Notes: generated by a model from the letters alone, not told the origin. 64,000 nt of DNA from a bacterium (GCA_016712675.1 JADJQR010000001.1:3351056-3415055); one strand, 5' to 3'; positions 8,077 to 37,632 are shown, counted from the first letter of the stretch. A program made the numbers and translations.

Positions 8077-8099
8077 TCACATGACAGCCATTTATGTGA
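8077..8099. promoter_or_regulatory. Palindromic candidate operator in a divergent intergenic region
   Basis: TCACAT-N11-ATGTGA perfect inverted repeat inside the locally AT-richer 325-bp region between the divergently transcribed beta-helix/C25 operon and the large C25 peptidase gene. Confidence 0.3.
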
Positions 8100-23040: not shown

Positions 23041-24504
23041 ATGGACCCGAAGCTCAACCAGGTGGACGAGACGGTTCTGGCGCGCGCCGCGCAGCGCTGC
23101 CGCGAACGCGGCATCGTCATCCCCACGATCGCCCAGATGAAGGACCCGGCGCTGATCCCTGCCGGCCGCCGCCGACGGTTGAAGGATGTCGGCCTGTGGG
23201 ACCTGGACCCGGCCAACCTCTTCCGCATCACCTGGAAGAACGACCCGGTCAACGGCGGCTTCAACGACGGCAACTGGGTGGAATTCCCCCGCGAACTGAC
23301 GGGCGTCGACGCCCGCATCGTCGGCCTGGTCGGCAAGTGGTTCCCGACCGGCGCCCACAAGGTGGGTGCCGCCTTCGGCTGCCTGGTGCCGCGCCTGGTC
23401 ACCGGCCAGTTCGACCCCGTGACGCAGAAGGCCGTCTGGCCGAGCACGGGCAACTACTGCCGCGGCGGCGCCTGGGACTCGAAGCTGCTGGGCTGCGAAT
23501 CGGTGGCGATCCTGCCGGAGGAGATGAGCGCCGAGCGTTTCGCCTGGCTCAAGGGCATCGCCAGCGAGGTCATCGCCACGCCGGGCTGCGAGTCGAACGT
23601 CAAGGAAATCTACGACAAGTGCTGGGAGATCCGCCGCACGCGGCCCGAATGCGTGATCTTCAACCAGTTCGAGGAATTCGGCAACCCGACCTGGCACTAC
23701 CACGTGACCGGCGGCGCGGTGCAGGAGATCTTCGAGCGCATCGGCGGGCCGGGCGCACGCCTGGCGGCCTGGGTTTCGTCGACCGGCTCGGCAGGGACGA
23801 TCGGCGCCGGCGACTTCCTCAAGACCAGGCATCCCCACGCCCTGGTCGTGGCGGTCGAGGCGCTGCAGTGCCCGACACTCTACGCCTGCGGTTTCGGCGC
23901 GCATCGCATCGAGGGCATTGGCGACAAGCACGTGCCGTGGGTGCACAACGTGCGCAACACGGACTTCGTCGCCGCGATCGACGACGAGCAGTGCCTCGGC
24001 CTGCTGCGCCTGTGCAACGAACCGGCCGGCCGGCAGGTCCTCGGTGACGCAAGCGTGCCGCAGGCGCTGGTCGACCGACTCCCCCTGCTGGGCATCTCGT
24101 CGCTGTGCAACCTGGCCGCGGCCATCAAGACCGCGCGTCACTACGACCTGGGCTCGCGCGACCTGCTGTTCATGCCGCTGACCGACTCGGCGGAGATGTA
24201 CGCTTCCCGCCTGGTCGAGATGACGGCCGCCCGCGGCGCCTATGCGCGCGAGAACGCGCTGGTGGACCATGCCCGCTGGCTGCTCGGGTGCGTTCCTGAC
24301 CATGTGCGCGAGCTGAGCTACCTGGACCGCAAGGCGCTGCACAACTTCAAGTACTTCACCTGGGTCGAGCAGCAGGGACGCACCGTCGAGGAGCTGCGGC
24401 AACTGTGGGACCAGGACTTCTGGGCCGAGACCTACGACGTGGTCGAGGCCTGGGACCGCCGGATCGACGAGTTCAACGCACGGGTCGGGCTCGGCGACAG
24501 CTGA
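23041..24504 (+). CDS. PLP-dependent fold-type II enzyme (TrpB/CysK-like) with N- and C-terminal extensions
   Basis: 487 aa; candidate PLP-lysine region PTGAHKVGAAFG resembles the TrpB TGSHK motif; glycine-rich loop SSTGSAGTIGAG. Specific function not assignable. Confidence 0.6.
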   Translation: MDPKLNQVDETVLARAAQRCRERGIVIPTIAQMKDPALIPAGRRRRLKDVGLWDLDPANLFRITWKNDPVNGGFNDGNWVEFPRELTGVDARIVGLVGKWFPTGAHKVGAAFGCLVPRLVTGQFDPVTQKAVWPSTGNYCRGGAWDSKLLGCESVAILPEEMSAERFAWLKGIASEVIATPGCESNVKEIYDKCWEIRRTRPECVIFNQFEEFGNPTWHYHVTGGAVQEIFERIGGPGARLAAWVSSTGSAGTIGAGDFLKTRHPHALVVAVEALQCPTLYACGFGAHRIEGIGDKHVPWVHNVRNTDFVAAIDDEQCLGLLRLCNEPAGRQVLGDASVPQALVDRLPLLGISSLCNLAAAIKTARHYDLGSRDLLFMPLTDSAEMYASRLVEMTAARGAYARENALVDHARWLLGCVPDHVRELSYLDRKALHNFKYFTWVEQQGRTVEELRQLWDQDFWAETYDVVEAWDRRIDEFNARVGLGDS

Positions 24505-24531: not shown

Positions 24532-25359
24532 TCACTGCGCATGCACGGTCAGGCCGCTGCGCCGCACCTCGCCCAGGTCGTACTCCGCCATGGGGGCGCA
24601 CCAGGTCGCCCGCAGCTCGTCGCCGCGCGCGGCGAAGGCCGCCGTGTAGTCCGGCGGCAGCCCGCCCGGCCCGAACGGCACCTCGGCGGCAGCGCCCTCC
24701 ATGCGGTCCGCCTCGTCGCGCCACAGCCCCGCCGCGGCTCCGTCGCCAACCTCCTCCAGCGCCGCGGCGTGCCGCCGCATGAGGCCCAGCACCGTCGTCC
24801 GCAGGCGCTCGACGCGCGCACCGTCGCCTTCCCCATCGTCGCCGTCGGCCCGGTCCGGGATCGGATGCCCCAGCCACGAATGGTAGGCCAGCACGTAGAT
24901 CCAGGTGTACTCGCCCAGGCCCATCTTCTGTTCGAGCAGGGCCCGGTTGCGGGCCTCGTTCAGCTTGCCGATGTCCCCGACCAGGCCCAGGATGCTGCCG
25001 GTGACACTCGTGACGGCGCGGAAGATCTCGCGGCCGGGGGGCTGGTCGCTCTGCGACCCGAGTTCATCCATGCGGCCCAGGTCACGGGTGAATTCCTCGA
25101 ACGCGGCGCAATGCGGCATCACGGCGCGGCGGACCGCCAGGAAGGCGTCCAAACGGTCGGCTGCGACGGGCCCGGCCGGCGGCACGTGGTCGTCGGGGGC
25201 GCCGAGGGCGGCCACCAGTTCCTTCTGCGCGTCGATCGCCCGGTCCAGCGGCGGCATGAGGAACAGCCCCAGCACGATGGGGCCGCCGATCGACAGGAGG
25301 ATCAGCCCGCCACAGCCGAGGCCGCAGCCCAGGAGCCACTTGCGCGGTTTGCCGGCCAT
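24532..25359 (-). CDS. Hypothetical membrane-anchored protein
   Basis: 275 aa with N-terminal TM segment (LLGCGLGCGGLILLSIGGPIVLGLFLM); no motif recognised. Confidence 0.4.
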   Translation of the reverse strand: MAGKPRKWLLGCGLGCGGLILLSIGGPIVLGLFLMPPLDRAIDAQKELVAALGAPDDHVPPAGPVAADRLDAFLAVRRAVMPHCAAFEEFTRDLGRMDELGSQSDQPPGREIFRAVTSVTGSILGLVGDIGKLNEARNRALLEQKMGLGEYTWIYVLAYHSWLGHPIPDRADGDDGEGDGARVERLRTTVLGLMRRHAAALEEVGDGAAAGLWRDEADRMEGAAAEVPFGPGGLPPDYTAAFAARGDELRATWCAPMAEYDLGEVRRSGLTVHAQ

Positions 25360-25601
25360 CGGCGCCTCCTCGCGGGTCCGGTCGGTAGGTAAGGTTCTCC
25401 ATTATCACGCCGGCACGCCCCCGGGCAAGCTCGCAGGTTCCGGCCCGTCCTGAAGGACGCACACGCCGCCCGTGCGGTTGCGCGCCGTTCATGGTATCGT
25501 GTTTCACTCCGGTTTCAGGAGCCCCGACGCCCGCTGTCCCCGACGGGCACGGCCAGGGGGTCAGCACCCATTGTCGCCCGCCAGCCACGGGAGGACCCGC
25601 A

Positions 25602-26482
25602 TGCCGCTGAAAGTTTCCGATCAGATCCGGACCCGCGTCGCCAGCGGCGAGATCACCGCTGCCGAGGCCGATCGCTTCGGGGCGTTCGTCGCCACCTGCA
25701 ATCGCGACCTGATGACCCACCCGGTCATCACGAACAACCGGTTCTGCGAATGGTTCGCGCGCGGCGAGGCCGACCGCGACATCGTGCGCCATTTCGTCGT
25801 GCAGTTCTCGGTGTTCTCGAACCTCTTCCTCATCGCGCAGCTCCAGAAGTGCATCAATGCCGGCTCGCTCGAGGGCATGCGTGCCTCGAAGGAGATCCTG
25901 GCCAACGAGATCGGCGTCATCTTCAACAAGCCGGGCGCCGCGTCGAAGGCCGTCAGCGACACCGACCGGGAAGGGGATCCGGCGATCGTCTCGACCGAAG
26001 GCACGGTCGACGGCGGCACGTTCCGCTTCGCGGCGGCGCATTTCGAGTGGTTGCTGCGCATGGGTGAGGTTCTGGATCTGGGCTTCAACGACATGGGCAA
26101 GCGGCGGCACGGGACGCCGTCGACGCTGTTCTTCTGCGACCAGCTGTCCGCGATCTACGGCAGCGACGACCCCAACACGGCCGAGGGCGCCAGCTTCGCG
26201 GTCGAGAACTGGGCAGCCGCCGGCTTCTGGAAGCAGCTCGTGGCGGGCCTGGACGCCTTCAAGAAGCGCGAGTGCCCCCAGCTGCCGCTGGCCTTCTTCA
26301 CCTGGCACGACCGCATCGAGGAGCAGCACGCCGGCCACGTCATGGATGAGCTGGAGGAATTGTACTTCACGCCCGACTTCGACGAGGCTAAGTTCCTGGA
26401 CGGCGGCCGCCGCATGCTGGACGGCGTCCAGGCGTTCTGGACCGGGTTGAACGAGCACCGGATCGCCGCCGCCTACAGCTGA
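25602..26482 (+). CDS. Heme-oxygenase-like fold enzyme (iron-containing redox enzyme family, PqqC/TenA/CADD-like)
   Basis: Start set at the ATG at 25602 preceded by GGAGGA; helical protein with E/H-rich candidate metal ligands (ILANEIG, FFTWHDRIEEQHAGHVMDELEE). Confidence 0.5.
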
Positions 26483-26507: not shown

Positions 26508-27137
26508 ATGAAGCGACGTCTGTTGGTCGCGCGAGCGCTGGCCTGCGGGCTGGCGCTCGCCGCGTCGGCGTCCGCGCAGGACCCGATGGTCGCCGCGAAA
26601 TCCGACAGTCTGGCGCCGCCCCTCCCGGGCGAGCGCGAACAGGCCCTGGCTGCCTGGGACCGCGCCGCCGTGCCCGGCCCCTGGCACGCCTTCCTGGCCG
26701 GCCGCGCCGGCCGCTGGAACGTCGCCGGCCGCATCTGGAACGAGCCGGGCGGCGAGCCCGCGCTCTCGACCGGCGAGTCCCGCCTGGAGATGCTCCTGGA
26801 TGGCCGCTTCCTGCAGGAGCGCCACCGGGGCCAGGTCGACGGCCGCGCCTACGAAGGCCTGGGCCTGCTCGGCTTCGACAACGCCGACAGCACGGTCACG
26901 GCCATCTGGCTCGACAACCTCGGCACCCGTACGGCGGTCCTGAGCGGCCGCGCCCGAGCGCCGGGCGATCCGGTTCACCTGCGCGGGACGTACACCGATC
27001 CGGCGAGCGGTCGTGTGGTCTCGCTGCGCCTGGTCATCACCTGGAACGGCGCCAACCGGCAGCGCTGGGAGTATTTCGGGGCGCCCGAGGGCTTCGACGA
27101 GGCGCGCCTGATGGAACTGGACTACACTCGGCGTTGA
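26508..27137 (+). CDS. Hypothetical secreted protein (possibly DUF1579-like)
   Basis: Signal peptide (MKRRLLVARALACGLALAASASA); no catalytic motif recognised. Confidence 0.45.
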   Translation: MKRRLLVARALACGLALAASASAQDPMVAAKSDSLAPPLPGEREQALAAWDRAAVPGPWHAFLAGRAGRWNVAGRIWNEPGGEPALSTGESRLEMLLDGRFLQERHRGQVDGRAYEGLGLLGFDNADSTVTAIWLDNLGTRTAVLSGRARAPGDPVHLRGTYTDPASGRVVSLRLVITWNGANRQRWEYFGAPEGFDEARLMELDYTRR

Positions 27138-27141
27138 AACG

Positions 27142-27173
27142 GGCGGCGGCGCTACCGATCCTGCGCCGCCGCC
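27142..27173. terminator. Bidirectional terminator hairpin between convergent genes
   Basis: Perfect 11-bp inverted repeat GGCGGCGGCGC (27142-27152) / GCGCCGCCGCC (27163-27173) with a 10-nt loop. Confidence 0.45.
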
Positions 27174-27197
27174 CGCCAAGTTCGCGACTCGTGTTTC

Positions 27198-28148
27198 CTA
27201 CCTGCCGGAATCTCCCGGCATCTTCTTGATCACGCTGGTGGCCAGCGCGATCATGCTGCCGATATCCGACAGGTTGGCCGGCAGCACCAGCGTGTTGCCC
27301 GCCTTGGCCAGCTTGCCGAACTCGGCCACGTACTGCTCGGCCACCCGCAACTGCATGGCCTCGTTGCCGCCCTGGCTGCTGATGGCAACCGCGACCTGCC
27401 GCAGGCCCTCGGCCGTCGCCGTGGCCACGGCCAGGATGGCCTCGGCCTCGCCCTGTGCCTCGTTGATCTGCCGCTGCCGCGTGGCCTCGGACTCCTTGAT
27501 CACCCGCTGCTTTTCGCCCTCGGCGCGGTTGATCTGCGCATCGCGCTCGCCCTCGCTGGCCAGGATCGTCGCGCGCTTCTCGCGCTCGGCGCGCATCTGC
27601 TTCTCCATGGCGCCGAGGATGTCGCGCGGCGGGTTGATGTTCTTGATCTCGTAGCGAAGCACCTTCACGCCCCACGGCTCGGACGCCTTGTCCAGTTCCT
27701 GCACGACCTGCTGGTTGATCGCCGCCCGCTCCTCGAACGTGCGGTCCAGGTCGATCTTGCCGATCTCGCTGCGCAGCGTGGTCTGTGCCAGCTGCGCGAT
27801 GGCGAAGTGGAAGTCCGCGATGCCGTACGAGGCCCGCTGCGGGTCCAGGACCTTCAGGTACAGCACGCCGTCCACGCCCACCTGCACGTTGTCGCGCGTG
27901 ATGCAGACCTGCTCGGCGATGTCCGTGGCGATCTCCTTCAGGCTGTGCCGATAGGCGACCTTCTCCACGAACGGCACCAGGATGTGGAACCCGGCCTGTA
28001 TGGTCTTGCGGTACTTGCCAAGGTACTCGACCACGAAGGCCGACTGCTGCGGCACGACGATCGCGGTCCGCGCGATCACGATCAGCACCAGCAGCACGAT
28101 GGCTCCCACGGCGATCATCGTCGGCATGTTCTCTCCCCCGAAGTTCAT
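27198..28148 (-). CDS. SPFH/band-7 family protein (stomatin/paraslipin-like)
   Basis: N-terminal TM plus SPFH core (VPQQSAFVVEYLGKY...TRDNVQV...EIKNINPP) and coiled-coil tail; overlaps nfeD by 4 nt. Confidence 0.8.
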   Translation of the reverse strand: MNFGGENMPTMIAVGAIVLLVLIVIARTAIVVPQQSAFVVEYLGKYRKTIQAGFHILVPFVEKVAYRHSLKEIATDIAEQVCITRDNVQVGVDGVLYLKVLDPQRASYGIADFHFAIAQLAQTTLRSEIGKIDLDRTFEERAAINQQVVQELDKASEPWGVKVLRYEIKNINPPRDILGAMEKQMRAEREKRATILASEGERDAQINRAEGEKQRVIKESEATRQRQINEAQGEAEAILAVATATAEGLRQVAVAISSQGGNEAMQLRVAEQYVAEFGKLAKAGNTLVLPANLSDIGSMIALATSVIKKMPGDSGR

Positions 28149-28576
28149 GATTCGCTCCTAACGTGAAGCGTCAGACCGTCCACCCTCGTGACGACGCAAC
28201 GGCCCCCGGCCGGCAGGTCGTCGCCCCCCCCATTGACCGCGTCCCATTCCGTCCCGCGCAGGACGACACGACCGCGGGCACCGACCGCGATCCCGTCACG
28301 CGCGAACCCCGCCTCCCCTTCCAGGTCGGGCGTCAGTTCGCGGTCGACCTGCGACAGCCGGCTCTTCCACCGCCGCCGATACACCGAAAGGCCGGCCACC
28401 GCGAGCAGCGCGAACAGGAGCCATTGCGCCCAGGCCGGCAGTGCGACGCCGACCAGGCCCATTCCACCCACCAGCAGCGCCGCCAGTCCGAAGAACACGA
28501 GATAGAAATCGGCGGCGATGATGACTTCCGCCACGAGTAGCACGGCGCCGAGCGCGATCCAGAACCACCAGGCCAT
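28145..28576 (-). CDS. NfeD-family membrane protein (stomatin operon partner)
   Basis: 143 aa, three TM helices then a short soluble C-terminal domain; classic NfeD-stomatin pairing. Confidence 0.7.
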   Translation of the reverse strand: MAWWFWIALGAVLLVAEVIIAADFYLVFFGLAALLVGGMGLVGVALPAWAQWLLFALLAVAGLSVYRRRWKSRLSQVDRELTPDLEGEAGFARDGIAVGARGRVVLRGTEWDAVNGGGDDLPAGGRCVVTRVDGLTLHVRSES

Positions 28577-28666
28577 GACTCCCCCTTCCCTTCGCAGGCA
28601 CCCAGGCGATGCTACGCGCGCACGCCGGACACGTCAACCGGAGCCACTACCCCGCAAGGTGTCGTA

Positions 28667-30211
28667 CTATTCGGGGCGGGAGGCGGTTTCGCGGAGAGCG
28701 GCCTTGAGGACCTTGCCCGCCGAATTGCGCGGCAGGGCGGCCACAAAGCGCACGCGGCGGGGCATCTTGTACGCGGCCAGCGACAAGGCGCAGTGGCGCA
28801 GCAGCAGTTTCTCGTCGGCGAAGGACCGCTCATGGGGCACGACCCACGCCTCGATCGCCTCACCCAGGAGCTCGTCGGGCACGCCGATGACACACGCTTC
28901 GGCCACGGCCGGATGTCGCAGCAGCGTCGCCTCGATCTCGAGGGAGCCGACGCGGTTGGCCCCGGCCTTGATCATGTTGCGGAGGCGATCGACGACGTAG
29001 AGAAAGCCATCCTCGTCGCGGTAGGCGACATCACCGGTGCGGAGTCCGTCCTGGCCCAGCACGGCGGCGGACTCGGCCGGGGCGTTCCAGTAGCCGCGCA
29101 TGACGTTCGGGCCGGCCGCGACGATCTCGCCCGGCTCGTGGACATCGCATTCGCTACCGTCCGGCCTTCGTACCGTCAAGGTGACGCCCGGTATGGCAAG
29201 GCCGATCGAACCGTACTTGTCGCGCAACCTGTCGGGCGGGACCGAAGCGAGCCGGGCGGACGCTTCCGTCTGGCCATACATGACGTGAACGTCGATGCGC
29301 GCGGGCAGGGCCTCGCGTATCATCCGCGCAAGCTCGGGCGACATGGCGCCACCGGCCTGCGTCAGGTAGCGAAGGTGCTCGTGGCGACGCAGCAGGAAGT
29401 CGGTCCGGGCGCAGAGAATCGCGTAGTGGCTGGGCACACCGGAGAACCCGGTGCAGCGCTCGTCCGCGAGGGTCGCCAACACCTGCTGGGGAAAGGCGAA
29501 GCGGTTGTCGACCACGACGCGCCCGCCGCAGCGAACGTGCGTCAGGAGCAGCGAGTTCCCGAAGCTGTAGTGGAAGGGCAGGATGCAGCAGACGCTGTCG
29601 TCGGACCTCAACCGCAGGTAGGCCAGGATCTGGTGCGTGTTGGCGACCAGGTTTCCGTGGCTCAACATCACGCCCCGCGGCGCACCCGTCGACCCGCTCG
29701 TGTACAGGATCAGGGCCAGATCATCCGGACCCACCGTGCCGGCGTCCGTCACCGGCGCCGCCGCCAGGGCGTTCCCCGCGCTGACGAACGTCGCGCCGGT
29801 GGCCGACGCACACACCGGAGCCGTGCCCTCCAGCACGACCAGACGCAGTGCCGGGCACGCCGCCACGTAGCACGCAGGGTCCGGCACGTGGCGATCCCGC
29901 GACCAGAGGGCAACGGCACCACTGTCTCGCAGCAGCTCGAGTTGGGTCTGGCCACCGTTGGCGTGGTTGAGCGCGACGCAGCAGGCTCCGGCACGCAGGA
30001 TGCCGAAGTAGGCCGTGACGTACTCCCGTGAATTCTCCAGGAGCAGCGCGACCCGGTCGCCGTGCCTGACGCCCGCGTCACGAAGGAACCCCGCCACTCT
30101 CGCACTGTCGTCGACCAGCGATGCGTAATCGACATGGCGCCCTTCGTGGGAGAGCGCGACCGCGCCGGGCATCCGAGCGGCGGCATCCAGCAGCATGCGG
30201 TGGACGGTCAC
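28667..30211 (-). CDS. AMP-forming acyl-CoA/acyl-ACP ligase (adenylate-forming enzyme)
   Basis: AMP-binding signature ILYTSGSTGAPRGVMLSHGNL; 514 aa; last gene of a four-gene cassette. Confidence 0.8.
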   Translation of the reverse strand: MTVHRMLLDAAARMPGAVALSHEGRHVDYASLVDDSARVAGFLRDAGVRHGDRVALLLENSREYVTAYFGILRAGACCVALNHANGGQTQLELLRDSGAVALWSRDRHVPDPACYVAACPALRLVVLEGTAPVCASATGATFVSAGNALAAAPVTDAGTVGPDDLALILYTSGSTGAPRGVMLSHGNLVANTHQILAYLRLRSDDSVCCILPFHYSFGNSLLLTHVRCGGRVVVDNRFAFPQQVLATLADERCTGFSGVPSHYAILCARTDFLLRRHEHLRYLTQAGGAMSPELARMIREALPARIDVHVMYGQTEASARLASVPPDRLRDKYGSIGLAIPGVTLTVRRPDGSECDVHEPGEIVAAGPNVMRGYWNAPAESAAVLGQDGLRTGDVAYRDEDGFLYVVDRLRNMIKAGANRVGSLEIEATLLRHPAVAEACVIGVPDELLGEAIEAWVVPHERSFADEKLLLRHCALSLAAYKMPRRVRFVAALPRNSAGKVLKAALRETASRPE

Positions 30212-30214
30212 CGG

Positions 30215-31267
30215 CTACTCCCCGACTCCCGGTGTGTCCTGCCGTTCCCACGGCGGGCCCGGATCCACCGGCTTGACCAGCACCGGCGGCAGGTGCAGGT
30301 AGGCAGCCACGGCGCGCTTGCGTTCGATGTCGCGATAGACGCGCTCGACCTGAACCGGCTGCAGGGCGAGCGCAGCCGCAGCGTCGGCCGCGGGCACGGC
30401 ATGGCTCCTGGCCCACAGGAGCAGGTCCATTTCGCGATAGGGCAGCGCGAAGTAGAATTCGGTCTGCGTCTGCGGCAGGCTGAACGTATCGGTGGTCGGC
30501 TCGGCACCGCAGATCTCCTCCGGCAGGTCCAGGTGCCGAGCCAGGGCATAGACCTGGGTCTTGTACAGGTGCGCGATGGGCTTCACGTCGGCGGACCCGT
30601 CACCGTTCTTGACGAAGAAGCCCTGGTCGTACTCCAGCCGGTTCGGCGTGCCGGCCACGGCGTAGCGGAGCCGGTCGGCATGGAAGTACTCCAGGGTCTT
30701 GCGGACGCGCTGCTTGAAATTGGTCGTTGCCACCAGTTCGAGGTACACGTCCGCGGTCAGGCGCACGGTCGATTCGGCGCCACCCGGCGCGCGCACGACC
30801 AACTGCGAGACGTTGACGCGATCGGAGTCCAGGACGTCACCGGGCAACACCAGCTTGCTGCGCCAGCCTTCACCGTAATTGGGCATGACCCGCCGAACGG
30901 CCGCGTCGTAGCGCCGATAGCAGCCCAGCGCCGCGAGCGCCGGCGCGACGTCCTCGACGACACGGGCCACTCCGAGCGCGTCGGCCAGCAGCAGGCCGCG
31001 GCGCGTGCTGTCCGGGTCGGAATGCCGCTCCGGCATCAGCAACGCGAACACGCGCCCGGGTCCGAGCGCACGCACGGCCAATGCGCAGGTGACCGAGCTG
31101 TCGATGCCGCCGCTGACGGCGACCACGACGCCGCGACAGCGCAGGCGCTTCTGGACGATGTCGCGCAGACGCACGCTGATCTCGTGCACCTCACCCGCCG
31201 GGTCGAGGTCAAGGACGCTGCGGTCGAACACGCTGATCCCCTCCGCCCGGCTGCGCCGGACCGCCAC
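30215..31267 (-). CDS. NAD+ synthetase (NadE)-like N-type ATP pyrophosphatase
   Basis: PP-loop VVAVSGGIDSSV and NadE-like C-terminal region (KPIAHLYKTQVYALARHLDLP...TDTFSLPQTQTE). Confidence 0.7.
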   Translation of the reverse strand: MAVRRSRAEGISVFDRSVLDLDPAGEVHEISVRLRDIVQKRLRCRGVVVAVSGGIDSSVTCALAVRALGPGRVFALLMPERHSDPDSTRRGLLLADALGVARVVEDVAPALAALGCYRRYDAAVRRVMPNYGEGWRSKLVLPGDVLDSDRVNVSQLVVRAPGGAESTVRLTADVYLELVATTNFKQRVRKTLEYFHADRLRYAVAGTPNRLEYDQGFFVKNGDGSADVKPIAHLYKTQVYALARHLDLPEEICGAEPTTDTFSLPQTQTEFYFALPYREMDLLLWARSHAVPAADAAAALALQPVQVERVYRDIERKRAVAAYLHLPPVLVKPVDPGPPWERQDTPGVGE

Positions 31268-31270
31268 CGC

Positions 31271-31525
31271 TCACGCCGCCGTCGCGCGCCGGCGTTCGAC
31301 GTACGCCACCAGATTGTCCACCGAGTCCAGGTTCTGCGGGACCAGATCCGAATCCGGCACCTGGAGCCCGAGCCGCGATTCGAGAAAGGCGACCAGATCC
31401 ATGACGCCGAGGGAGTCCATGATCCCGTTGTCGAGCAGCGACAGGTCGTCACTCCCCAGTCGGGTGTCGTCGCCGAACAGGAAGTTCTCGACGACGAAAT
31501 CGCGGATCATCGATCTCAGTTCCAT
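31271..31525 (-). CDS. Acyl carrier protein
   Basis: 84 aa from the internal ATG at 31525 (MELRSMIRDF...); phosphopantetheine-attachment motif LDNGIMDSLGVMDLVAFLE. Its start overlaps the AsnB-like stop by about 10 nt. Confidence 0.7.
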   Translation of the reverse strand: MELRSMIRDFVVENFLFGDDTRLGSDDLSLLDNGIMDSLGVMDLVAFLESRLGLQVPDSDLVPQNLDSVDNLVAYVERRRATAA

Positions 31526-33549
31526 CGTGTGACTCCTTGTCCCTCCATCATCCACACGACCTGCCCCGGCTGCAATCGCGTCGCCGCTGCGTGCGAGGCG
31601 AATCCGGTTCCGAACTCGCGCTGCAGCATGCGGCCGCTGAGGACCGCGATGAAAGCCGCGTCGTCGCGCTGACCGAGCCCGCGCCCGGTGCGCCATTTCC
31701 GCACGAGGGCCGTCACACGGTCCCGGTCCCACATCTCCCAGCCCGGCCCATCGGCCAGCAGGTGGTCCTCCACGATAGCCCGTCCGACATCGCCGGCGAA
31801 CGAGGCACTACCTGGGGCGCGGTACGGGTGCTTGCCGCGTCCACTGATGGCGGCGGGCACCAACCCGGCCGCCGCACTGCGCAGCATCGCCTTCTCGGCC
31901 AGGGTGGGCAACTTGGCCGAAACCGGGATGCTTGCCGCGAACTCGACCAGTTCGTGATCCAGGTACGGGAAGCGCCCCTCGACCGCGTTGGCCATCAGCA
32001 TGCGATCGCCCTGCGACGCCAACAGGTAGCCCGACATGAAGACGGCCATTTCCAGATACTGGCACCGGGCCACGGTACCCCAGCCGGCGAAGGCCTCCGG
32101 CAGCGATGCCAGCAATCGGGCCTCGGCGGCTCCCCCGGCGAACTCCCGGCGGGCCTCCTCGGCCAGGAAACCCGCGGCTCCGTTTCGCCAGCGGGGACGA
32201 TGGGAATACAGCGGATCGTCCGTCCGCGTCAGTCCGTGCCCATAGAAGGCCCGGAGCATCGCCGGCGGCGGCAGCTCCTGGAACGCGTGCAGACGGGCCA
32301 GGAGGGCCGGTCGCAGCTCCGAGTCCGGCTGTCGGCTCCAGAACGCGCGCAGCTTCGCCTCGCGGTGGATATCGTAGCCGACGAACACCTCGTCGGCGCC
32401 CTCGCCGGTCAGGACGACCCGGCGTTCGTCCGCATGCACGGCACCGCTGAGGACGAGCAGGGGCGCCGGAGCCGTACGCGGCAGCGGGGTCTCTGCGTGC
32501 CACGTCGCCTGGACCAGGCGTGCGGCAATCAGTTCCGCGTCCGCGACGACGCCGTGGTGGTCGACACCGAGGTGTTCCACCATGACCGCCTGCCACCTGC
32601 GTTCGTCGTAGCCCTCCCGCTCGAATCCGAGCCCATATGTGCGCAGGCCGTCACCGGTCTGCCGGCGCGCCATCGCGGCAATGACCGCGGAATCCAGACC
32701 GCCGGACAGGTATGACGCCACCGGCACGTCCGCGCGCAGGCGCAAGGTGACGGCACGAGCCAGGCGCTCCCGCAGTTCGGTGACCAGTGCCAGGCGTTCG
32801 CGGGCGGGGACGAAGCGTCGATCCTCAGCCGCGGGCAGGAACGAGGGGGCCCAGTACCGGTGCGCCTCGAGGCAGCCGGGCAGCGACCCCGCCGCCTGCT
32901 CACCGGCGTGACCGCGGCGCACCAGCGCCCAGTGGCCCGGCGGTAGCTGCGCGACGCCCCGGAAGCAGGTGGCGGGCGCGATGTTCGCCCAGTACGCAAG
33001 CACCTCGGCGAACCCCGCGGGGTCGGGCTGCAGGACGAAGCCCGGATAGCCCCCGAGGGCTTTCGCTTCCGAGGCGAACAGGAGACACCCGCCATGGGTC
33101 GCGACGAAGAGCGGACAGATGCCGAACCGGTCGCGGGCCAGAAACAGATCCCCGCGCGGCGCATCCCAGATCGCGATGGCGAACTGCCCATTGAAGCGTT
33201 CGACGCAACGCGGGCCCCAGGCCTGCCAGGCGTTGAGGATGACTTCGGTGTCGCTTCGGGTCCGGAAGGCGAGGCCCAGATCCTCCAGTTCGCGGCGCAG
33301 CTCGAGGTAGTTGAAGACCTCGCCATTGTAGGCGATGTGGCAGCGTCCGCTGCCCGCGGTCATCGGCTGCGCGCCGTCGGTGGGATCGATGATCGCCAGA
33401 CGCGCATGGCCCAGGAACACGCGATCGTCGCGCCAGGCGCCGAAGCCGTCGGGACCACGGTGCCGCAGCAGCCCGATCATGGCGGCAGGCACGTCTGTCG
33501 GCAATTCGAGCCGACCGTCCAGCGCCAGGACCCCGCAGACACCGCACAT
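31516..33549 (-). CDS. Asparagine synthetase family glutamine amidotransferase (AsnB-like)
   Basis: Start placed so the protein begins MCGVCGV (N-terminal nucleophile Cys2); PP-loop SYLSGGLDSAV in the synthetase domain; GGGAGGTGA RBS upstream. Confidence 0.8.
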   Translation of the reverse strand: MCGVCGVLALDGRLELPTDVPAAMIGLLRHRGPDGFGAWRDDRVFLGHARLAIIDPTDGAQPMTAGSGRCHIAYNGEVFNYLELRRELEDLGLAFRTRSDTEVILNAWQAWGPRCVERFNGQFAIAIWDAPRGDLFLARDRFGICPLFVATHGGCLLFASEAKALGGYPGFVLQPDPAGFAEVLAYWANIAPATCFRGVAQLPPGHWALVRRGHAGEQAAGSLPGCLEAHRYWAPSFLPAAEDRRFVPARERLALVTELRERLARAVTLRLRADVPVASYLSGGLDSAVIAAMARRQTGDGLRTYGLGFEREGYDERRWQAVMVEHLGVDHHGVVADAELIAARLVQATWHAETPLPRTAPAPLLVLSGAVHADERRVVLTGEGADEVFVGYDIHREAKLRAFWSRQPDSELRPALLARLHAFQELPPPAMLRAFYGHGLTRTDDPLYSHRPRWRNGAAGFLAEEARREFAGGAAEARLLASLPEAFAGWGTVARCQYLEMAVFMSGYLLASQGDRMLMANAVEGRFPYLDHELVEFAASIPVSAKLPTLAEKAMLRSAAAGLVPAAISGRGKHPYRAPGSASFAGDVGRAIVEDHLLADGPGWEMWDRDRVTALVRKWRTGRGLGQRDDAAFIAVLSGRMLQREFGTGFASHAAATRLQPGQVVWMMEGQGVTRWN

Positions 33550-33877
33550 GCCAATCACCTCCCGCCGCGATCCCGGTCTGCCGACGCGGACAACCCGGGT
33601 CCAGGCGCCGCCACCGACGGGGGCGACCCCGATACCCGGAACCCGCTACCTCTGCTGGCCTTTCATCGACCGCGGCGACCGGCGCTTGAGAACGTGCCAC
33701 CTCGGTACGGCGGGGGATCCCGGCGGCGTCTCATGGCGGTTGCCGTGACGCCCCCCGCGCTGCTACCATCGAGAGAGAGCGAACGGGGTCGCCCGCCTCC
33801 GCCGCCGACAAGCCCCGTCGCGGCGAAGGTGGTGACCGGAATGGGTCCAACCTCCAGAGCAACGGACATCGGGGACC

Positions 33878-34690
33878 ATGATCACATACCTACCCCGTCA
33901 CCTGGCTGCCGCCGGGTGCCTGGCGGCACTTCTGGCCGTTGCCTGTCGGATCGAAGCGCAGGGGGACCGCATGACCGGCATTGCCACGGTAACCGAGGCG
34001 CAGTGGCAGGCTGTTGCCGCCCGGCGCGTGATTTTCGCCCACCAATCTGTCGGGCGCAACATCCTCGAGGGGCTGCGGGCCCTGGACGGCGGCTCGCGCC
34101 TGGCGATCGCCGAGACGCGCTCGCCGACGACCGGGCCGGGCATCTTCCACTTCGCCGTCGGCCGCAACGGCGATCCCCTGGGCAAGGTGAGTGACTTCGC
34201 GAGCGCCATCGACACGGGTGCCGCTGGCGACATCGCGCTGCTCAAGCTCTGCTACGTCGATTTCTCGCACGGCGCCGACCCACTGGCGGTTGCGCAAGCC
34301 TACGGGGACACGCTCGACAATTTGGCGGCGCGGCACCCCGCGATGACGTTCGTCGCGGTCACCGTGCCACTGACCACGGTGCAGGGGGGAGCCAAGGCGT
34401 TCGTCAAGAAGCTGCTCGGTCGCGAGCCCACCGGCTTCACCGAGAACGCCCGGCGGCAGGTGTTCAACGACGCCTTGCGCAGCCGCAGCCACTCCGGCCG
34501 CCCGCTGTTCGACCTGGCCACCATCGAGGCTGGCGACTGCAGGAGCAGCTACGGCGGGCAGTCGATCCAGTATCTGGACCCGGATCTGACGAGCGACGGC
34601 GGCCATCTCAACGAACAGGGCGCGCGACGGGCTGCGGCAGCGCTCGTGGCGTTCCTGGCCGACCTGGACGCCGCGTCCGGGGCCCGTTAG
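33878..34690 (+). CDS. Secreted hydrolase-like protein, possibly SGNH-fold
   Basis: Signal peptide; C-terminal DGGHLNEQG resembles the SGNH block V D-x-x-H; the other blocks are weak. Confidence 0.4.
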   Translation: MITYLPRHLAAAGCLAALLAVACRIEAQGDRMTGIATVTEAQWQAVAARRVIFAHQSVGRNILEGLRALDGGSRLAIAETRSPTTGPGIFHFAVGRNGDPLGKVSDFASAIDTGAAGDIALLKLCYVDFSHGADPLAVAQAYGDTLDNLAARHPAMTFVAVTVPLTTVQGGAKAFVKKLLGREPTGFTENARRQVFNDALRSRSHSGRPLFDLATIEAGDCRSSYGGQSIQYLDPDLTSDGGHLNEQGARRAAAALVAFLADLDAASGAR

Positions 34691-34785
34691 GGATCGAGGC
34701 CCCCCACGGGGGCATGGCCCTCGGCGACCCGGCGTGCACCGCACGCCGCGGTCCAAGCCACCGCCGCTCCCGATTTCCGCTGCGC

Positions 34786-37632
34786 CTACCGGTACCCGAA
34801 CACCACCGCCCAGATGATCAGCACCACGAGTCCCAGGCCGATCGTCAGCGCCACGAACCCGAAGGTCTTGAGCGCCTTGACGAAGCCCTCGGGCAGCGGC
34901 TCGACCATGTGCTCCTCGAGCCGGCCTTCGCGCACCAGCTGCTCGTATTCGCGCGGCCGATCTTCCTTGAACTCCTCCAGCGTCATGCGGCCGGTGAAGA
35001 TCACGGGGTCCATCGGGAACCGGTCCGGACGGAAGTGCGTGTTGAAGAAGTGGATCGTGAAGATGAAGCCGGTGGCCAGCAGCGCCTCGTCCGAGTGGAT
35101 GATCTGCGCCACGTTGATGAACCAGCCCGGCAGCACCCGGGTGAACAGCTCCGGGAACCACAGGATCAGGCCGCTGAAGCCGATCATGGCGACGCCCCAG
35201 AACACCGCGAAGTAGTCGAACTTCTCCCAGTAGGTCCAGCGGCCGTACTCCGGGCGCGCACCGCGGCCGAGGAACCACTTCAGCGTGCCGATGAACTCCT
35301 GGCCGTCGCGCTGGTTGGGGAACATCCCGTCGGGCCCGAACACGAATTCGCGCCAGCTCTTGCCCGACTGCTTGCGTCGGCAGTACAGGTCATAGATATG
35401 ACGCGTGAAGTAGAAGAAGGTCAGGATGGCGCCCATACGATGCAGGGTGCCGGCGGACTGGAAGCCTCCCAGTGCCCTGGCCAGCGTCTGGGCCCACGGC
35501 AGATACGAGAACTTCAGGGTCATGCCGGTGACCGCGAGCGTCAGGAAGCTGACGATGACCATGATGTGCAGCGTGCGGTTGAGGCGATTGAAGCGTCGGA
35601 ACTGCTTCTGCCCTGCGGCCTGCTTCCTCAGCTGCCGGCTGTGCCGCAGCGCCTGGAAGCTGCGCGGCAGCCACAGCAGCGTGTGAAGGCCGAAGACGCT
35701 GAAGGTGCCCACCAGAAGTGCGGTCATGAACAACCACGTGTAGTGGATGACCGGGTACTTCGTCTTGTCATGGTGCGTGGCATGAGTCAGATAGCCGGCG
35801 AACTGCCGGTGCGCGCCCTCGTGGCACTTCGCGCACGTGCCCACGATGTTGTCGCGCGAAAGCGTCGAGGCCGGGTTGTCCGGCTTCTGGATGCTGTGCT
35901 GGCCGTGGCAATCCGAACAACTGGCCGTCTCCGTGTAGCCCAGCGCGAAGACCTTGCCGTGGTAGGTCTCGAAGTAGCTCTCGGTAACGTGTTCATGGCA
36001 CGTGCCGCACTGCGCCACGATCCGCAGCCGGAAGCCCTCGGCGTCCGTGCGCGCGATCTGGTGCGAGGTGTGGCAGTCGTTGCACATGGGCAACCGGTGC
36101 CCATCCTTCGCCTCGCCCGTGAAGTGGATGCTCTGCCGGAACTCGCGGTCGACGCCCTCGTGGCACTTCCCGCAGGTCACGTCGACCTTCGAGCGGTGCA
36201 CCGACGAGGCAGGGTCGGCGCTCGGCATGATCGCGTGCGTGGTGTGGCAGTCGACGCAGGTGGCGGTCACGACCAGGCCGCTCTTGTCCAGGGCCCGCCC
36301 GTGCGTGCTCTCCTTGTAGTTGGCCACCATGCTCTTCTCGGTGCCCTCGTAGCGCTTGTCGGCCACGCCGCCCTCGTCGTGGCACTTCCCGCACATGTCC
36401 GGGATGTTGCGCACGTGGGTCATCGACGCGGGATTCGTCCTCTTCAGGATGTCGTGCCGGCCGTGGCAGACCAGACAGTCCGGGACATCCTTGTCGCCCT
36501 GGGCGCCCAGCTTGCCGTGGATGCTGGCTTTGTAGGTCTCGACGACTTCGGCGTGGCAGATCGAGCAGTCGACCCTGTTGGGCACCGTGTCGCACGGGCG
36601 TGCGTGGCTGGGGGTGGCTCCCGTGTGGCACTGGATGCAGGCGGTCTTGACGTGCGCCGAGCCGGCCAGCATGGCGTGGTCGACGTGCATCGACCGGCCG
36701 GCGTTGGCCGGCGTCGCGCCGACGAGGTCCTTCTGGGCGTGGCACTTCAGGCACTCGCTGTCGGCCATCCCCTCGCCGTAGTACACGCGGCGGATCTCAT
36801 GCGGCTCGTGGCATTCAATGCAGGCCGGGACCTTGCTCGGTTCCTTCTCCCAGAGTTGGCCCTCGATGACCTTCGCGTGCACTTTCTCGATCATCCCGTG
36901 ACACGACTGGCACATGCCGGCGATGTTGTCGCGATGGATGCTGCTCTTGGGGTCCTTGTGGTTGCGCACGTTGTGCGCTGTGTGGCAGTCCGAGCACACG
37001 GCCGAGTTCGTCAGGCCCCGCTTGTAGAGGCCCTCGCCGTGAATCGAGAAGGAGTAGTGCGCCAGGATGCTATCCTGCGACACCTCGGCGTATTCGCGGA
37101 TGGCCTCGCCTTCCCGGTGGCAGCGCCCGCACATCACCGGGATGTTGAAGCGGTTGACCTTCGACGCGGGATCGTTCGGCGGCATGATGTCGTGCGCGCC
37201 GTGGCAGGTCCAGCAGCGCGGGGCGATGGGCACGCCCTGGCTGACTCCCACCCCGTGCAGGCTACCGGCATACTGCGCGGCCACACCGTCATGGCACGTG
37301 CCGCAGTCCACGTCCGGCAGTTCCTCCGCGTGCGGCCAGTCCTCCACGCCCGCCAGCGACTGGTGGCAGTCCACGCAGCCGATGCCCTCACGCCCGTGCA
37401 CCGAGCGGTTGTAGACCCCGAGGTCGAAGTAGAGCGACTTGACCTGACCGCGCTCGTTCTTGGTGAGGCTACGGTCGTCGTGGCACATCTGGCAGGTGTC
37501 CGCGTCCTGGGCCAGGGCGTCGGCTGCGGTCAGGGCCAGGCCCAACGACGCCATCGCTGTCGCCAGCCACAGCAGGCCGCCGCGCCGTCGGCGGTCCTGG
37601 TGGCGTGGTCCACGCGGGAAGCTCATCGGCAC
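34786..37632 (-). CDS. Multiheme c-type cytochrome (19 CxxCH) fused to a C-terminal membrane cytochrome-b-like domain (CbcL-like)
   Basis: 19 CxxCH motifs counted in the first ~600 aa (CQMCH, CVDCH, CGTCH, CWTCH, CGRCH, ... CAKCH), then about six TM helices bearing conserved His (LHTLLWL, LHIMVIV, LHRMGAIL, IHFFNTHF). Confidence 0.8.
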   Translation of the reverse strand: MPMSFPRGPRHQDRRRRGGLLWLATAMASLGLALTAADALAQDADTCQMCHDDRSLTKNERGQVKSLYFDLGVYNRSVHGREGIGCVDCHQSLAGVEDWPHAEELPDVDCGTCHDGVAAQYAGSLHGVGVSQGVPIAPRCWTCHGAHDIMPPNDPASKVNRFNIPVMCGRCHREGEAIREYAEVSQDSILAHYSFSIHGEGLYKRGLTNSAVCSDCHTAHNVRNHKDPKSSIHRDNIAGMCQSCHGMIEKVHAKVIEGQLWEKEPSKVPACIECHEPHEIRRVYYGEGMADSECLKCHAQKDLVGATPANAGRSMHVDHAMLAGSAHVKTACIQCHTGATPSHARPCDTVPNRVDCSICHAEVVETYKASIHGKLGAQGDKDVPDCLVCHGRHDILKRTNPASMTHVRNIPDMCGKCHDEGGVADKRYEGTEKSMVANYKESTHGRALDKSGLVVTATCVDCHTTHAIMPSADPASSVHRSKVDVTCGKCHEGVDREFRQSIHFTGEAKDGHRLPMCNDCHTSHQIARTDAEGFRLRIVAQCGTCHEHVTESYFETYHGKVFALGYTETASCSDCHGQHSIQKPDNPASTLSRDNIVGTCAKCHEGAHRQFAGYLTHATHHDKTKYPVIHYTWLFMTALLVGTFSVFGLHTLLWLPRSFQALRHSRQLRKQAAGQKQFRRFNRLNRTLHIMVIVSFLTLAVTGMTLKFSYLPWAQTLARALGGFQSAGTLHRMGAILTFFYFTRHIYDLYCRRKQSGKSWREFVFGPDGMFPNQRDGQEFIGTLKWFLGRGARPEYGRWTYWEKFDYFAVFWGVAMIGFSGLILWFPELFTRVLPGWFINVAQIIHSDEALLATGFIFTIHFFNTHFRPDRFPMDPVIFTGRMTLEEFKEDRPREYEQLVREGRLEEHMVEPLPEGFVKALKTFGFVALTIGLGLVVLIIWAVVFGYR

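Follow-up and report, generated by a model that had tools for sequence, protein, structure and literature searches.

The window (the entire 64,000-nt stretch of bacterial DNA that was analysed) carries four closely packed genes on its minus strand, between positions 28667 and 33549, and a lipoprotein gene transcribed divergently from them. The features are as follows.

31516..33549, minus strand: AsnB-like glutamine-hydrolysing amidotransferase, 677 aa, with GATase_7 and Asn_synthase domains
31271..31525, minus strand: dedicated acyl carrier protein (ACP), 84 aa, PP-binding domain, phosphopantetheine site DSL
30215..31228, minus strand: NadE-type PP-loop enzyme, 337 aa counted from a GTG preceded by a Shine-Dalgarno sequence, NAD_synthase domain
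28667..30211, minus strand: AMP-forming (ANL) ligase, probable acyl-ACP synthetase, 514 aa, with AMP-binding and AMP-binding_C domains
33550..33877, no strand: intergenic region of 328 nt that separates the divergent AsnB-like and SGNH lipoprotein genes
33878..34690, plus strand: accessory gene, loosely associated with the cassette, for an SGNH-fold lipoprotein of 270 aa

In all four minus-strand ORFs GC varies over the codon positions as in real genes (GC3 0.84-0.88), and their domain matches agree with the identities proposed in the first-pass annotation. Two of the tight junctions it described can be read directly from the sequence: the TGA of the AsnB-like gene (31516-31518) is overlapped over 10 nt by the ACP gene, which starts with an ATG at 31525 preceded by the Shine-Dalgarno sequence AAGGAG, and the GTG of the ligase gene (30211) lies 3 nt past the TAG of the NadE gene (30215-30217). 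The latter start agrees with that of the deposited protein P0121 (514 aa, 100% identity). Upstream of the AsnB-like ATG the sequence is GGAGGTGA. A NadE start 3 nt past the ACP stop had also been claimed; this describes the GTG at 31267, which merely opens the longest ORF. The start is most likely the GTG at 31228, approximately 42 nt past the ACP stop, because NadE homologues are 327-339 aa long with an N-terminus MFDR and because GGAGGGG precedes this codon. The gap was called as 38-40 nt in two relatives (L001 and L169), which fits 42 nt in the window. The whole cassette is syntenic in three related metagenomic contigs (L001, L002 and L169) and about 90 other loci link the same four families; the arrangement is therefore far beyond chance.

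The neighbourhood was largely as first described. An NfeD/SPFH pair, annotated earlier as stomatin/NfeD, lies 90 nt downstream of the cassette, and the divergent hydrolase-like gene upstream encodes the SGNH-fold lipoprotein. The intergenic region 33550..33877, which presumably contains the promoters of both divergent genes, gave no Rfam match and no sigma-70-like consensus site. Ser57, Asn97, Asp240 and His243 of the lipoprotein are invariant in 52 homologues, and the nearest folds to its AlphaFold model (pLDDT 93) are sialate, carbohydrate and peptidoglycan O-acetylesterases. At least 14 loci, spread over several phyla, have such a homologue next to the cassette; unlinked copies also occur. 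A scan of the 22-44 kb interval and of the window's largest ORFs showed peptidases, aconitase, a cytochrome, SPFH/NfeD and similar genes, and no exosortase, polysaccharide or glycosyltransferase genes were seen among them. The C25 peptidases of this neighbourhood bear FlgD_ig tails, which makes its earlier description as T9SS-type cargo plausible.

Analysis of the AsnB-like protein identified GATase_7/GATase_6 and Asn_synthase domains, an N-terminal Met-Cys (MCG...) and an SGGLDS loop. The class II glutaminase domain that the first-pass annotation wished to see checked is thus present together with its N-terminal Cys. All three marks of asparagine synthase B (HMM, N-terminal nucleophile Cys and PP-loop) were found; the score against the equivalog model TIGR01536 is 450 bits (cut-off 267), a match that implies no substrate, since this model also catches paralogues that do not form asparagine. 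The protein stays below the cut-offs of the AsnB-specific model NF006949 (265 bits, cut-off 499) and of the XrtA amidotransferase model TIGR03108 (334 bits, cut-off 817), and its closest solved structure is the hydroxyamidotransferase 7YLZ. The ACP matches PF00550, with the phosphopantetheine serine in DSL, and exceeds the cut-off of none of the specific ACP models, the best being ACP_for_OlsHI (46.5 bits, cut-off 130). The ligase has intact adenylation motifs and is a probable acyl-ACP synthetase; it scores 361 bits against the exosortase ligase model TIGR03098 (cut-off 592). By these scores the AsnB-like protein and the ligase of the window fall outside the XrtA families.

The NadE-type protein scores as an NAD(+) synthase by HMM, fold and binding residues; the family reaction would be NaAD + ATP + NH3 -> NAD+. 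It gives 484 bits against the NF002048 "NAD(+) synthase" subfamily (cut-off 313) and 133 bits against TIGR00552 (cut-off 64), and is below the cut-offs of the equivalog models NF010587 and NF001979. All top Foldseek PDB neighbours of its AlphaFold model (pLDDT 88) are NAD or NMN synthetases, with TM-scores to target of 0.80-0.84 at 18-24% identity; in the same model a family-specific insertion of about 60 aa folds as three beta-strands. The PP-loop SGGIDS is present and the NaAD/ATP-binding residues N133, R137, R139, T157, E162, K170, D173, D177 and K186 are kept, while H257-K258 is replaced by R-K. These assignments use the B. subtilis NadE sequence and the roles of its ATP-, Mg2+- and deamido-NAD-binding residues, whose numbering agrees with the analysis. 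Across phyla the family is 55-62% identical, with 115 positions conserved at 90% or more. In a sister clade of 16 sequences from the same phylum the paralogue stands alone in a housekeeping context, beside adenosine deaminase, Rrf2 and pta-ackA genes, with AsnB-ACP-ligase still present elsewhere; 107 of the 115 conserved sites are identical in this clade, and no divergence is seen there. We found no assay of any NF002048 member.

Outside the standalone clade, 65 of the 66 NadE loci in GTDB species representatives have at least one partner within 6 kb; the ligase is within this distance in 61, and AsnB, ACP and ligase are all so placed in 41. The gene order within the cassette is evidently shuffled, because the NadE gene directly adjoins the ligase in 36 of these loci, AsnB in 16 and ACP in 10, and start/stop overlaps with each partner are frequent. 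The hosts span many phyla. When an independent metagenome collection was searched reciprocally with the ligase, its best relatives were again accompanied by NadE, AsnB and ACP, and generic ligases at 33-37% identity had none of these neighbours. Two relatives (L167 and L170) have AsnB-ACP-ligase with no NadE gene between ACP and ligase, so the trio can occur with no NadE linked to it. The paralogue was also found on 116 plasmid or chromid records, and the four genes were together in all six that were inspected. In A. brasilense the cassette is on a plasmid; this bacterium has two characterised NAD synthetases, NadE1Gln and NadE2Gln (PMC7196632). A housekeeping enzyme would be expected as a single copy in unrelated context; what was found is linkage in 65 of 66 loci, carriage on plasmids and a supernumerary copy in A. 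brasilense.

Most loci outside Krumholzibacteria are of the polysaccharide type and hold glycosyltransferases, a deacetylase-like gene and CysE-like O-acetyltransferases. The NadE-linked sets of Proteobacteria lie within exopolysaccharide loci that contain an XrtA-type priming glycosyltransferase (TIGR03013, 539 bits, cut-off 393), GT4 enzymes, a Wzx-like flippase and a sigma-54 response regulator. The statement in the first-pass annotation that ligase/ACP/AsnB sets accompany exosortase-type polysaccharide loci thus holds for these relatives. In one such locus, from Rhodocyclaceae, the scores are again below cut-off (TIGR03108, 406 against 817; TIGR03098, 485 against 592). In two loci (L037 and L045) the NadE-linked set is joined by another ligase, which lies next to a PLP decarboxylase; the two sets therefore look like paralogous systems. 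A HemK/PrmC-family methyltransferase next to the set recurs in 14 loci; this family methylates carboxamide nitrogen. In Alpha- and Gammaproteobacteria the set is flanked by GNAT-like proteins, each about 360 aa long. In the phylum of the window the cassette sits among core genes and is not part of a polysaccharide locus.

Gene content and identity make the cassette a homologue of the S. meliloti pSymB operon that contains the ACP SMb20651 and the ligase SMb20650. Because that operon holds the same four genes, the NadE gene is not peculiar to the window, as had been thought when it was described as an addition, and the set is not new: NadE is a standard member across many phyla, and on this sequence evidence the cassette is a distant copy of an operon that is widespread in bacterial phyla and horizontally mobile. 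The first-pass annotation would have denied it novelty if NadE were a housekeeping NAD synthetase that merely happened to be adjacent and if the other three genes matched a family with known product. By its scores NadE is indeed an NAD(+) synthase, yet its place beside the other genes is more than mere adjacency (65 of 66 loci), and the AsnB/ACP/ligase set is without a known product.

Taken as a whole, the locus is best read as a mobile AsnB-ACP-ligase-NadE operon that would encode an acyl-ACP module with two amidating enzymes and would decorate an envelope glycan or lipid (probability about 0.55). The ligase would act as an acyl-ACP synthetase and load a carboxylic acid onto holo-ACP, as demonstrated for the S. 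meliloti homologues. Each of the two ATP-dependent PP-loop enzymes would then adenylate a carboxyl group and exchange it for an amide, the AsnB-like protein taking nitrogen from glutamine and the NadE-like protein from ammonia, as the chemistry of their families suggests. Finally, lineage-specific partners, to judge from the variable neighbours, could transfer the product to a glycan or lipid of the envelope, or could trim it; candidates are the GNAT-like or hexapeptide acyltransferases, the HemK/PrmC-type amide N-methyltransferase and the SGNH esterase. The NadE paralogue would be a pathway member and no passenger, with NaAD, a nucleotide-like carboxylate or an ACP-borne acid as candidate substrates. 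As a working hypothesis, an ACP-tethered carboxylate that is amidated, possibly twice, fits both the chemistry of the families and the N-methyltransferase that recurs beside the set.

Several observations point the other way. The NadE paralogue retains the NaAD/ATP-binding residues and fold of genuine NAD synthetases, the 16 standalone sequences do not diverge from it at conserved sites, the trio occurs without linked NadE (L167 and L170), and no acyltransferase gene lies next to the cassette in the window. The C12:0 or C18:0 acyl groups reported for SMb20651 offer no spare carboxylate to amidate. A more specific proposal is tentative, and we consider it rather doubtful: the "NAD(+) synthases" of NF002048 could be a distinct NadE branch that does not act as NAD synthetase in vivo, amidates an ACP-presented carboxylate or a nucleotide-like intermediate of the module, and works with the AsnB-like enzyme towards an acyl group, a diamide or an N-methyl-amide, on envelope glycans or lipids in many phyla. 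If so, this would be a previously unrecognised carrier-protein-dependent amidation pathway.

The alternative that survives best, unlikely as we consider it, is that NadE is a genuine ammonia-dependent NAD+ synthetase, possibly a housekeeping copy, which is co-transcribed with an unrelated AsnB-ACP-ligase trio and serves NAD supply. The NF002048 score above cut-off, the fold matches to NAD synthetases only and the conserved binding residues all fit this explanation; so do the strong conservation across phyla (55-62%, 115 positions), as expected for a universal substrate, the standalone orthologues and the trios that have no NadE. It accounts poorly for the fact that 65 of 66 loci keep NadE linked to these three families despite shuffled order and with frequent start/stop overlaps, for the recovery of NadE by the reciprocal ligase search, for a set that travels on plasmids, and for a cassette copy in A. 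brasilense on top of its two NAD synthetases (PMC7196632); nor is there a known reason linking NAD synthesis to an ACP/ligase module.

Alternatively, the module could make an amide-containing lipid in place of a glycan substituent: a fatty acid, loaded on the ACP by the ligase, would be coupled to an acidic amino acid through an N-acyltransferase, and the carboxylates left free would be amidated by the AsnB-like and NadE-like enzymes. The C12:0 or C18:0 groups, which a 2009 study of S. meliloti reportedly found, would suit such a product, as would the flanking GNAT-like proteins, the position of the cassette outside polysaccharide loci in the window's phylum, the transfer of acyl groups to its ACP by the ligase homologue in E. 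coli (PMC7232532) and the fact that the ornithine-lipid ACP family provides the best ACP model. That match is far under cut-off, however (46-56 bits against 130), most loci outside Krumholzibacteria are polysaccharide loci, and the window has no acyltransferase beside the cassette. SMb20650 is also unable to activate long-chain fatty acids to CoA (PMC7232532), and altogether we regard this explanation as distinctly unlikely.

It is quite improbable that the cassette represents the accessory set of the XrtA/PEP-CTERM (exosortase A) system of Haft and colleagues (TIGR03098 ligase, ACP and TIGR03108), serving exosortase-linked exopolysaccharide. The XrtA-associated models do rank second-best among specific NCBIfam matches for both ligase and AsnB, and the proteobacterial sets lie in exopolysaccharide loci. 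On the other side, the scores in the window are far under the curated cut-offs and those of the Rhodocyclaceae locus are also below them, the two sets of L037 and L045 look paralogous, no exosortase or glycosyltransferase was seen near the cassette in its core-gene setting in the window's phylum, and NAD synthetase, ACP and ligase all go unmentioned in the 2006 PEP-CTERM paper.

The S. meliloti operon is among the known systems that come closest to the cassette. The operon, asnB - smb20651 (ACP) - smb20650 (ligase) - nadE1, was first noted by Ramos-Vega et al. in 2009 in Microbiology 155:257, who reportedly saw SMb20651 carry plain fatty acyl groups, C12:0 or C18:0, when it was in E. coli. It unites the same four families in one co-directional unit, with near full-length identities to the window of 43% (AsnB), 48% (ACP), 36% (ligase, which indicates homology and does not imply strict orthology) and 56% (NadE); the nadE1 product belongs to NF002048, as does the window enzyme. 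The order differs (AsnB-ACP-ligase-NadE, against AsnB-ACP-NadE-ligase in the window), as do the hosts: an alphaproteobacterial chromid and the chromosome of an uncultured FCB-group (Krumholzibacteria-like) bacterium. About 10 kb from the S. meliloti operon there are genes for a GNAT-like protein and a HemK-like methyltransferase; the window instead has the SGNH lipoprotein. The biochemistry on record concerns the ACP and ligase of S. meliloti: smb20650 is cotranscribed with smb20651, and SMb20650 acylates holo-SMb20651 in E. coli and is no substitute for FadD (PMC7232532). As late as 2017 no function had been settled for SMb20651 (PMC5686131).

A Dlt-type system (DltA/DltC/DltB/DltD) does not fit: the window ACP scores 33 bits against the DltC model (cut-off 68), no MBOAT protein (DltB) was seen in the window or related loci, and only the SGNH lipoprotein resembles a Dlt part, the SGNH-like DltD. 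Natural-product pathways offer a precedent for AsnB homologues that amidate thioester-linked substrates: OxyD makes the malonamyl starter unit of oxytetracycline. In this enzyme and in the hydroxyamidotransferase TsnB9 (PDB 7YLZ) an AsnB-type protein acts on a specialised-pathway carboxylate and not on aspartate, as proposed here; their pathways lack a NadE partner, and the window has no counterpart of the polyketide synthase. The XrtA/PEP-CTERM ligase, ACP and amidotransferase belong to the same superfamilies as the cassette proteins and share the exopolysaccharide setting in Proteobacteria, where both kinds of set can occupy one locus; the XrtA ligase is paired with a PLP decarboxylase and has no NadE, whereas the window set has NadE and scores below the XrtA cut-offs. 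With NH3-dependent NadE (EC 6.3.1.5; B. subtilis 1NSY/1KQP, P. horikoshii 2E18, H. pylori 1XNG) the window enzyme shares the PP-loop SGGxDS, the fold (TM-score to target 0.8) and the ATP/NaAD-binding residues. It differs from these solved enzymes in its low identity (18-24%) and its three-strand insertion of about 60 aa, and its family is set apart by persistent linkage to ACP, ligase and AsnB and by extra copies on plasmids.

Four minus-strand genes are tightly packed between positions 28667 and 33549 of the window. Their families were assigned from Pfam and NCBIfam profiles as follows.

31516-33549, minus strand: AsnB-like amidotransferase, 677 aa; GATase_7 and Asn_synthase domains, N-terminus MCG, SGGLDS loop
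31271-31525, minus strand: acyl carrier protein (ACP), 84 aa; Pfam PP-binding domain with a DSL serine
30215-31267 (longest ORF), minus strand: NadE-type enzyme, 350 aa; 484 bits against the 'NAD(+) synthase' subfamily model NF002048 (cut-off 313)
28667-30211, minus strand: ANL ligase, 514 aa; AMP-binding and AMP-binding_C domains

The four-gene cassette had been reported in the first-pass annotation. It is real and its gene calls are right; the four identities are confirmed by the domains and by third-position GC, which is 0.84-0.88 in all four ORFs (about 70% GC in the window) and thus indicates real genes. The AsnB-like protein scored 450 bits against TIGR01536 (cut-off 267), and the class II amidotransferase domain, for which a check had been suggested, is present as GATase_7 behind the MCG terminus. 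All scores of the ACP against the specific ACP models of NCBIfam were below cut-off.

The ATG of the AsnB-like gene at 33549 is preceded by GGAGGTGA. Two of the junctions described earlier could be read directly from the sequence: the ACP ATG, preceded by AAGGAG, lies within a 10-nt overlap with the AsnB TGA, and 3 nt separate the NadE TAG from the ligase GTG, a start that agrees with the deposited 514-aa protein P0121, to which the ligase is identical. The third junction needed correction. NadE had been placed 3 nt past the ACP stop, but the GTG at that point is only the start of the longest ORF and is probably wrong. Because NadE homologues are 327-339 aa long with the N-terminus MFDR, and because a GGAGGGG Shine-Dalgarno sequence stands in front of a GTG at 31228, the start most likely lies 42 nt past the ACP stop; the spacing in relatives is similar. 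An exact-sequence database look-up with the 350-aa ORF gave no match.

An Rfam search of 27000-35500 matched no family, and in a consensus scan neither a promoter in front of the AsnB-like gene nor a terminator behind the ligase was detected. Within 27-35 kb the scan gave a single sigma-70-like site, a consensus match at 28609-28637 (minus strand), which falls in the 90-nt gap that, as noted before, separates the ligase from the NfeD/SPFH pair. This site hints that NfeD/SPFH may have their own promoter and lie outside the cassette transcript.

The association of NadE with the other three genes was analyzed in one genome per GTDB species: the best 80 loci found with a NadE query were kept and the four window proteins were placed in them by tblastn. 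Among these best 80, at least one partner was found within 6 kb of NadE in 65 of the 66 loci outside one clade. The ligase was near NadE in 61 of the 66, the ACP in 55, the AsnB-like gene in 47 and all three in 41; these counts are lower bounds, since many contigs are broken off. The same-strand neighbour of NadE (within 150 nt; best 80 loci) was the ligase in 36 cases, AsnB in 16 and ACP in 10, and in several loci the coordinates of NadE and its direct neighbour overlap or nearly do so. Gene orders included ACP-ligase-NadE, AsnB-ligase-ACP-NadE, NadE-AsnB-ligase-x-ACP and a ligase divided from NadE-AsnB-ACP. According to the record titles, hosts include Xanthomonadales, Burkholderiales, Nitrosomonadales, Rhodocyclaceae, Myxococcota (two complete Sorangium genomes among them), Acidobacteriota, Planctomycetota, Chloroflexia, Ignavibacteria, Gemmatimonadota and Desulfobacterales. 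When the ligase was used as a query in an independent metagenome collection, its best relatives adjoined NadE, AsnB and ACP; generic ligases with 33-37% identity, found in the same search, stand alone. Among the loci fetched, 90 contain NadE with at least one partner. The frequency of partners and the recovery of NadE from the ligase side answer the earlier question of whether NadE is a mere neighbour of AsnB-ACP-ligase: it is not. An apparently conserved 84-aa family, f6_84, was rejected as an antisense ORF within NadE.

In PLSDB, a protein search found 116 plasmids or chromids that carry the NadE paralogue (Sinorhizobium 76 records, Azospirillum 12, Ensifer 9, Shinella 8, Mesorhizobium 7, plus others). 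Six plasmid or chromid regions were inspected, from S. meliloti, M. ciceri, A. thermophilum, Roseateles, Nitratireductor and A. brasilense, and the four genes were together in all of them. The survey shows the set to be a mobile unit that holds together across many phyla. Its setting changes with the lineage: exopolysaccharide loci, rhizobial and Azospirillum chromids, or a neighbourhood of core genes.

Gene content, intact catalytic motifs and conserved linkage were all observed for the cassette, and we give a probability of roughly 0.55, a little above even, to an integrated pathway in which NadE works within the ACP/AsnB/ligase module. In such a pathway the ligase would load the ACP, as seen with the S. 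meliloti homologues. The AsnB-like enzyme, with glutamine, and the NadE-like enzyme, with ammonia, would each adenylate and amidate a carboxylate, and lineage-specific transferases would hand the product to an envelope glycan or lipid. The nearest PDB structures of the ligase (feruloyl-, fatty-acyl-, oxalate- and malonyl-CoA ligases) did not discriminate between substrates.

The main rival explanation, that NadE simply makes NAD, is judged less likely; it draws on the properties of the enzyme itself. A PDB sequence search with NadE returned NAD synthetases only, the alignment being split in two around an insertion of about 60 aa that forms three beta-strands in the AlphaFold model (pLDDT 88). 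Foldseek with this model returned only NAD/NMN synthetases (TM-score to target 0.80-0.84, identity 18-24%). Relative to B. subtilis NadE, in a numbering that agrees with the PDB search alignment, the PP-loop is kept, as are the equivalents of N133, R137, R139, T157, E162, K170, D173, D177 and K186; H257-K258 is changed to R-K. Conservation in the family is unusually high, with 115 positions at least 90% conserved across phyla. By every criterion of sequence and predicted fold, the enzyme could bind NaAD.

In the neighbour-joining tree the NadE proteins of the window and of two related loci (L001 and L002) have as their sister group a clade whose 16 members come from the same phylum; there NadE is a solitary gene, flanked by adenosine deaminase on one side and Rrf2-pta-ackA on the other. 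At 107 of the 115 conserved positions these standalone proteins agree with the family, so that no functional shift is indicated. Two other loci (L167 and L170; ligase 59-60% identical) have AsnB-ACP-ligase in the same order and no NadE. The most economical history starts from an ancestral AsnB-ACP-NadE-ligase operon and has NadE move elsewhere in one lineage, where it may still serve the trio in trans or may simply be that lineage's NAD synthetase. Outside that lineage an accessory role is supported by plasmid carriage and by A. brasilense, where the homologue in the cassette is the third, after two characterised NAD synthetases that depend on glutamine (PMC7196632). A standalone NadE locus (L016) and a cassette locus (L166, NadE 48% identical), both from Krumholzibacteria, are each on an 86,009-bp contig under different record names. 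The fetched stretches do not overlap; if the two are a single contig, one genome holds both paralogues. In L167 (4457-4954) and L170 (5235-5729) a gene for an LDcluster4 protein (SLOG/LOG-like, nucleotide-binding) lies just 5′ of the AsnB-like gene, which may be coincidental synteny.

Should NaAD not be what the NadE paralogue acts on, thousands of genes are misannotated as 'nadE', with consequences for the NAD-pathway reconstructions based on them. Should it be a genuine NAD synthetase, it has to be explained why it is obligately tied to an ACP system.

Those relatives of the cassette proteins that bear a taxon name belong to the Krumholzibacteria. The order SGNH gene / AsnB-ACP-NadE-ligase-NfeD-SPFH is intact in L001, L002 and a further related locus, L169, with protein identities of 69-83%. 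In Krumholzibacteria-like genomes the cassette is located among core genes, except in L166, where it is within a polysaccharide locus. The divergent secreted hydrolase-like gene noted upstream is indeed present:

33878-34690, plus strand: SGNH-fold lipoprotein; invariant Ser57, Asn97, Asp240 and His243

In fold it comes nearest to O-acetylesterases that act on carbohydrate, sialate and peptidoglycan. The deposited protein P0241 (IPK64_13895, 239 aa) is identical in sequence, but its annotated start lies 31 codons into the ORF, so that it lacks the lipoprotein-type signal peptide (…LLAVAC) kept in homologues. The SGNH gene was rejected as a strict partner, since a homologue is unlinked in a genome with standalone NadE; its link to the cassette is a loose one.

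Genes accompanying the cassette differ by lineage. Homologues of the SGNH gene occur paired with CysE-like hexapeptide acyltransferases; two such genes lie between the SGNH and cytochrome genes in L001 (5381-6582) and L169 (2261-3459). No homologue was found in the 64-kb window, where only 95 nt (34690-34786) remain at this place, and the two genes are lost from it. Other neighbours of the cassette are two protein families of about 360 aa, GNAT-like or hypothetical and unrelated to each other. Members of the HemK/PrmC family methylate the carboxamide nitrogen of glutamine; a methyltransferase of this family adjoins the set in 14 loci, which is compatible with an amide product.

Constraint differs strikingly between neighbouring genes. 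The product of 34786-37632 (minus strand), a multihaem cytochrome c of 948 aa with a fused b-type membrane domain, is 92-94% identical in L001 and L169, and the SPFH protein (27198-28148) is 94-97% identical in relatives, whereas the adjoining cassette proteins reach only 69-83%. Synteny with L001 and L169 extends over 23041-24504 (plus), 24532-25359 (minus), 25472-26482 (plus) and 26508-27137 (plus), a block encoding a PLP-dependent (PALP) enzyme, two proteins without a Pfam match and a DUF1579 protein. FlgD_ig-type C-terminal domains end four window proteins:

2498-6238, minus strand: FlgD_ig-type domain at the protein end
7718-13423, plus strand: FlgD_ig-type domain at the protein end
16867-19401, minus strand: FlgD_ig-type domain at the protein end
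39890-41611, minus strand: FlgD_ig-type domain at the protein end

This set comprises two very large C25 (gingipain-like) peptidases, a trypsin-like BACON and MAM protein and a 573-aa protein. The domains would fit T9SS-style secreted cargo, as the neighbourhood had been described.

Ligase/ACP/AsnB sets had also been linked to exosortase loci. This holds for Proteobacteria, where the NadE-linked set lies inside exopolysaccharide loci with an XrtA-type priming glycosyltransferase (TIGR03013, 539 bits; cut-off 393), GT4 and GT2 enzymes, a deacetylase-like protein, a Wzx-like flippase and a sigma-54 response regulator. It does not extend to the window, whose AsnB-like protein and ligase score well under the XrtA-specific cut-offs (ligase 361 bits against TIGR03098; cut-off 592). 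In a Rhodocyclaceae locus, too, the AsnB-like protein only reached 406 (cut-off 817) and the ligase 485 (cut-off 592). In some loci a second ligase, paired with a PLP decarboxylase, accompanies the NadE-linked set; this pair fits the classical exosortase-A pairing of ligase and decarboxylase in the TIGRFAM set. The sub-cut-off scores and this separate pair speak against the XrtA accessory set as the identity of the cassette and point to a paralogous system. The 2006 PEP-CTERM paper does not mention NAD synthetase, ACP or ligase. An analogy with Dlt was rejected because neither the window nor the related loci showed an MBOAT.

The closest known system is an S. meliloti operon, to which the plasmid search alone led. 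On a 1.64-Mb replicon, adjoining minCDE, the order is asnB - ACP - acyl-CoA ligase - nadE, and the region matches the operon that holds ACP SMb20651 and ligase SMb20650. Ramos-Vega et al. reportedly named its members AsnB, SMb20651, SMb20650 and NadE1 in 2009, and are said to have seen C12:0 or C18:0 acylation in E. coli. Passages of PMC7232532 state that smb20650 is cotranscribed with smb20651, that acylated SMb20651 was obtained when SMb20650 was expressed in E. coli making holo-SMb20651, and that SMb20650 could not replace FadD. As of 2017 the function of SMb20651 'needs further investigation' (PMC5686131). Public annotation calls the members 'asparagine synthase', 'acyl carrier protein', 'acyl-CoA ligase' and 'NAD(+) synthase', and our literature search found no account joining NAD synthetase to asparagine synthase, ACP, exosortase or polysaccharide. 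The survey adds how broad and robust the four-gene linkage is and that the module relates to the XrtA set as a paralogue; it also raises the puzzle of why a NadE that seems fully NaAD-competent should accompany an ACP. The cassette is a new, distant example of an operon already described in 2009, with identities to the S. meliloti proteins of 43% for AsnB, 48% for ACP, 36% for the ligase and 56% for NadE.
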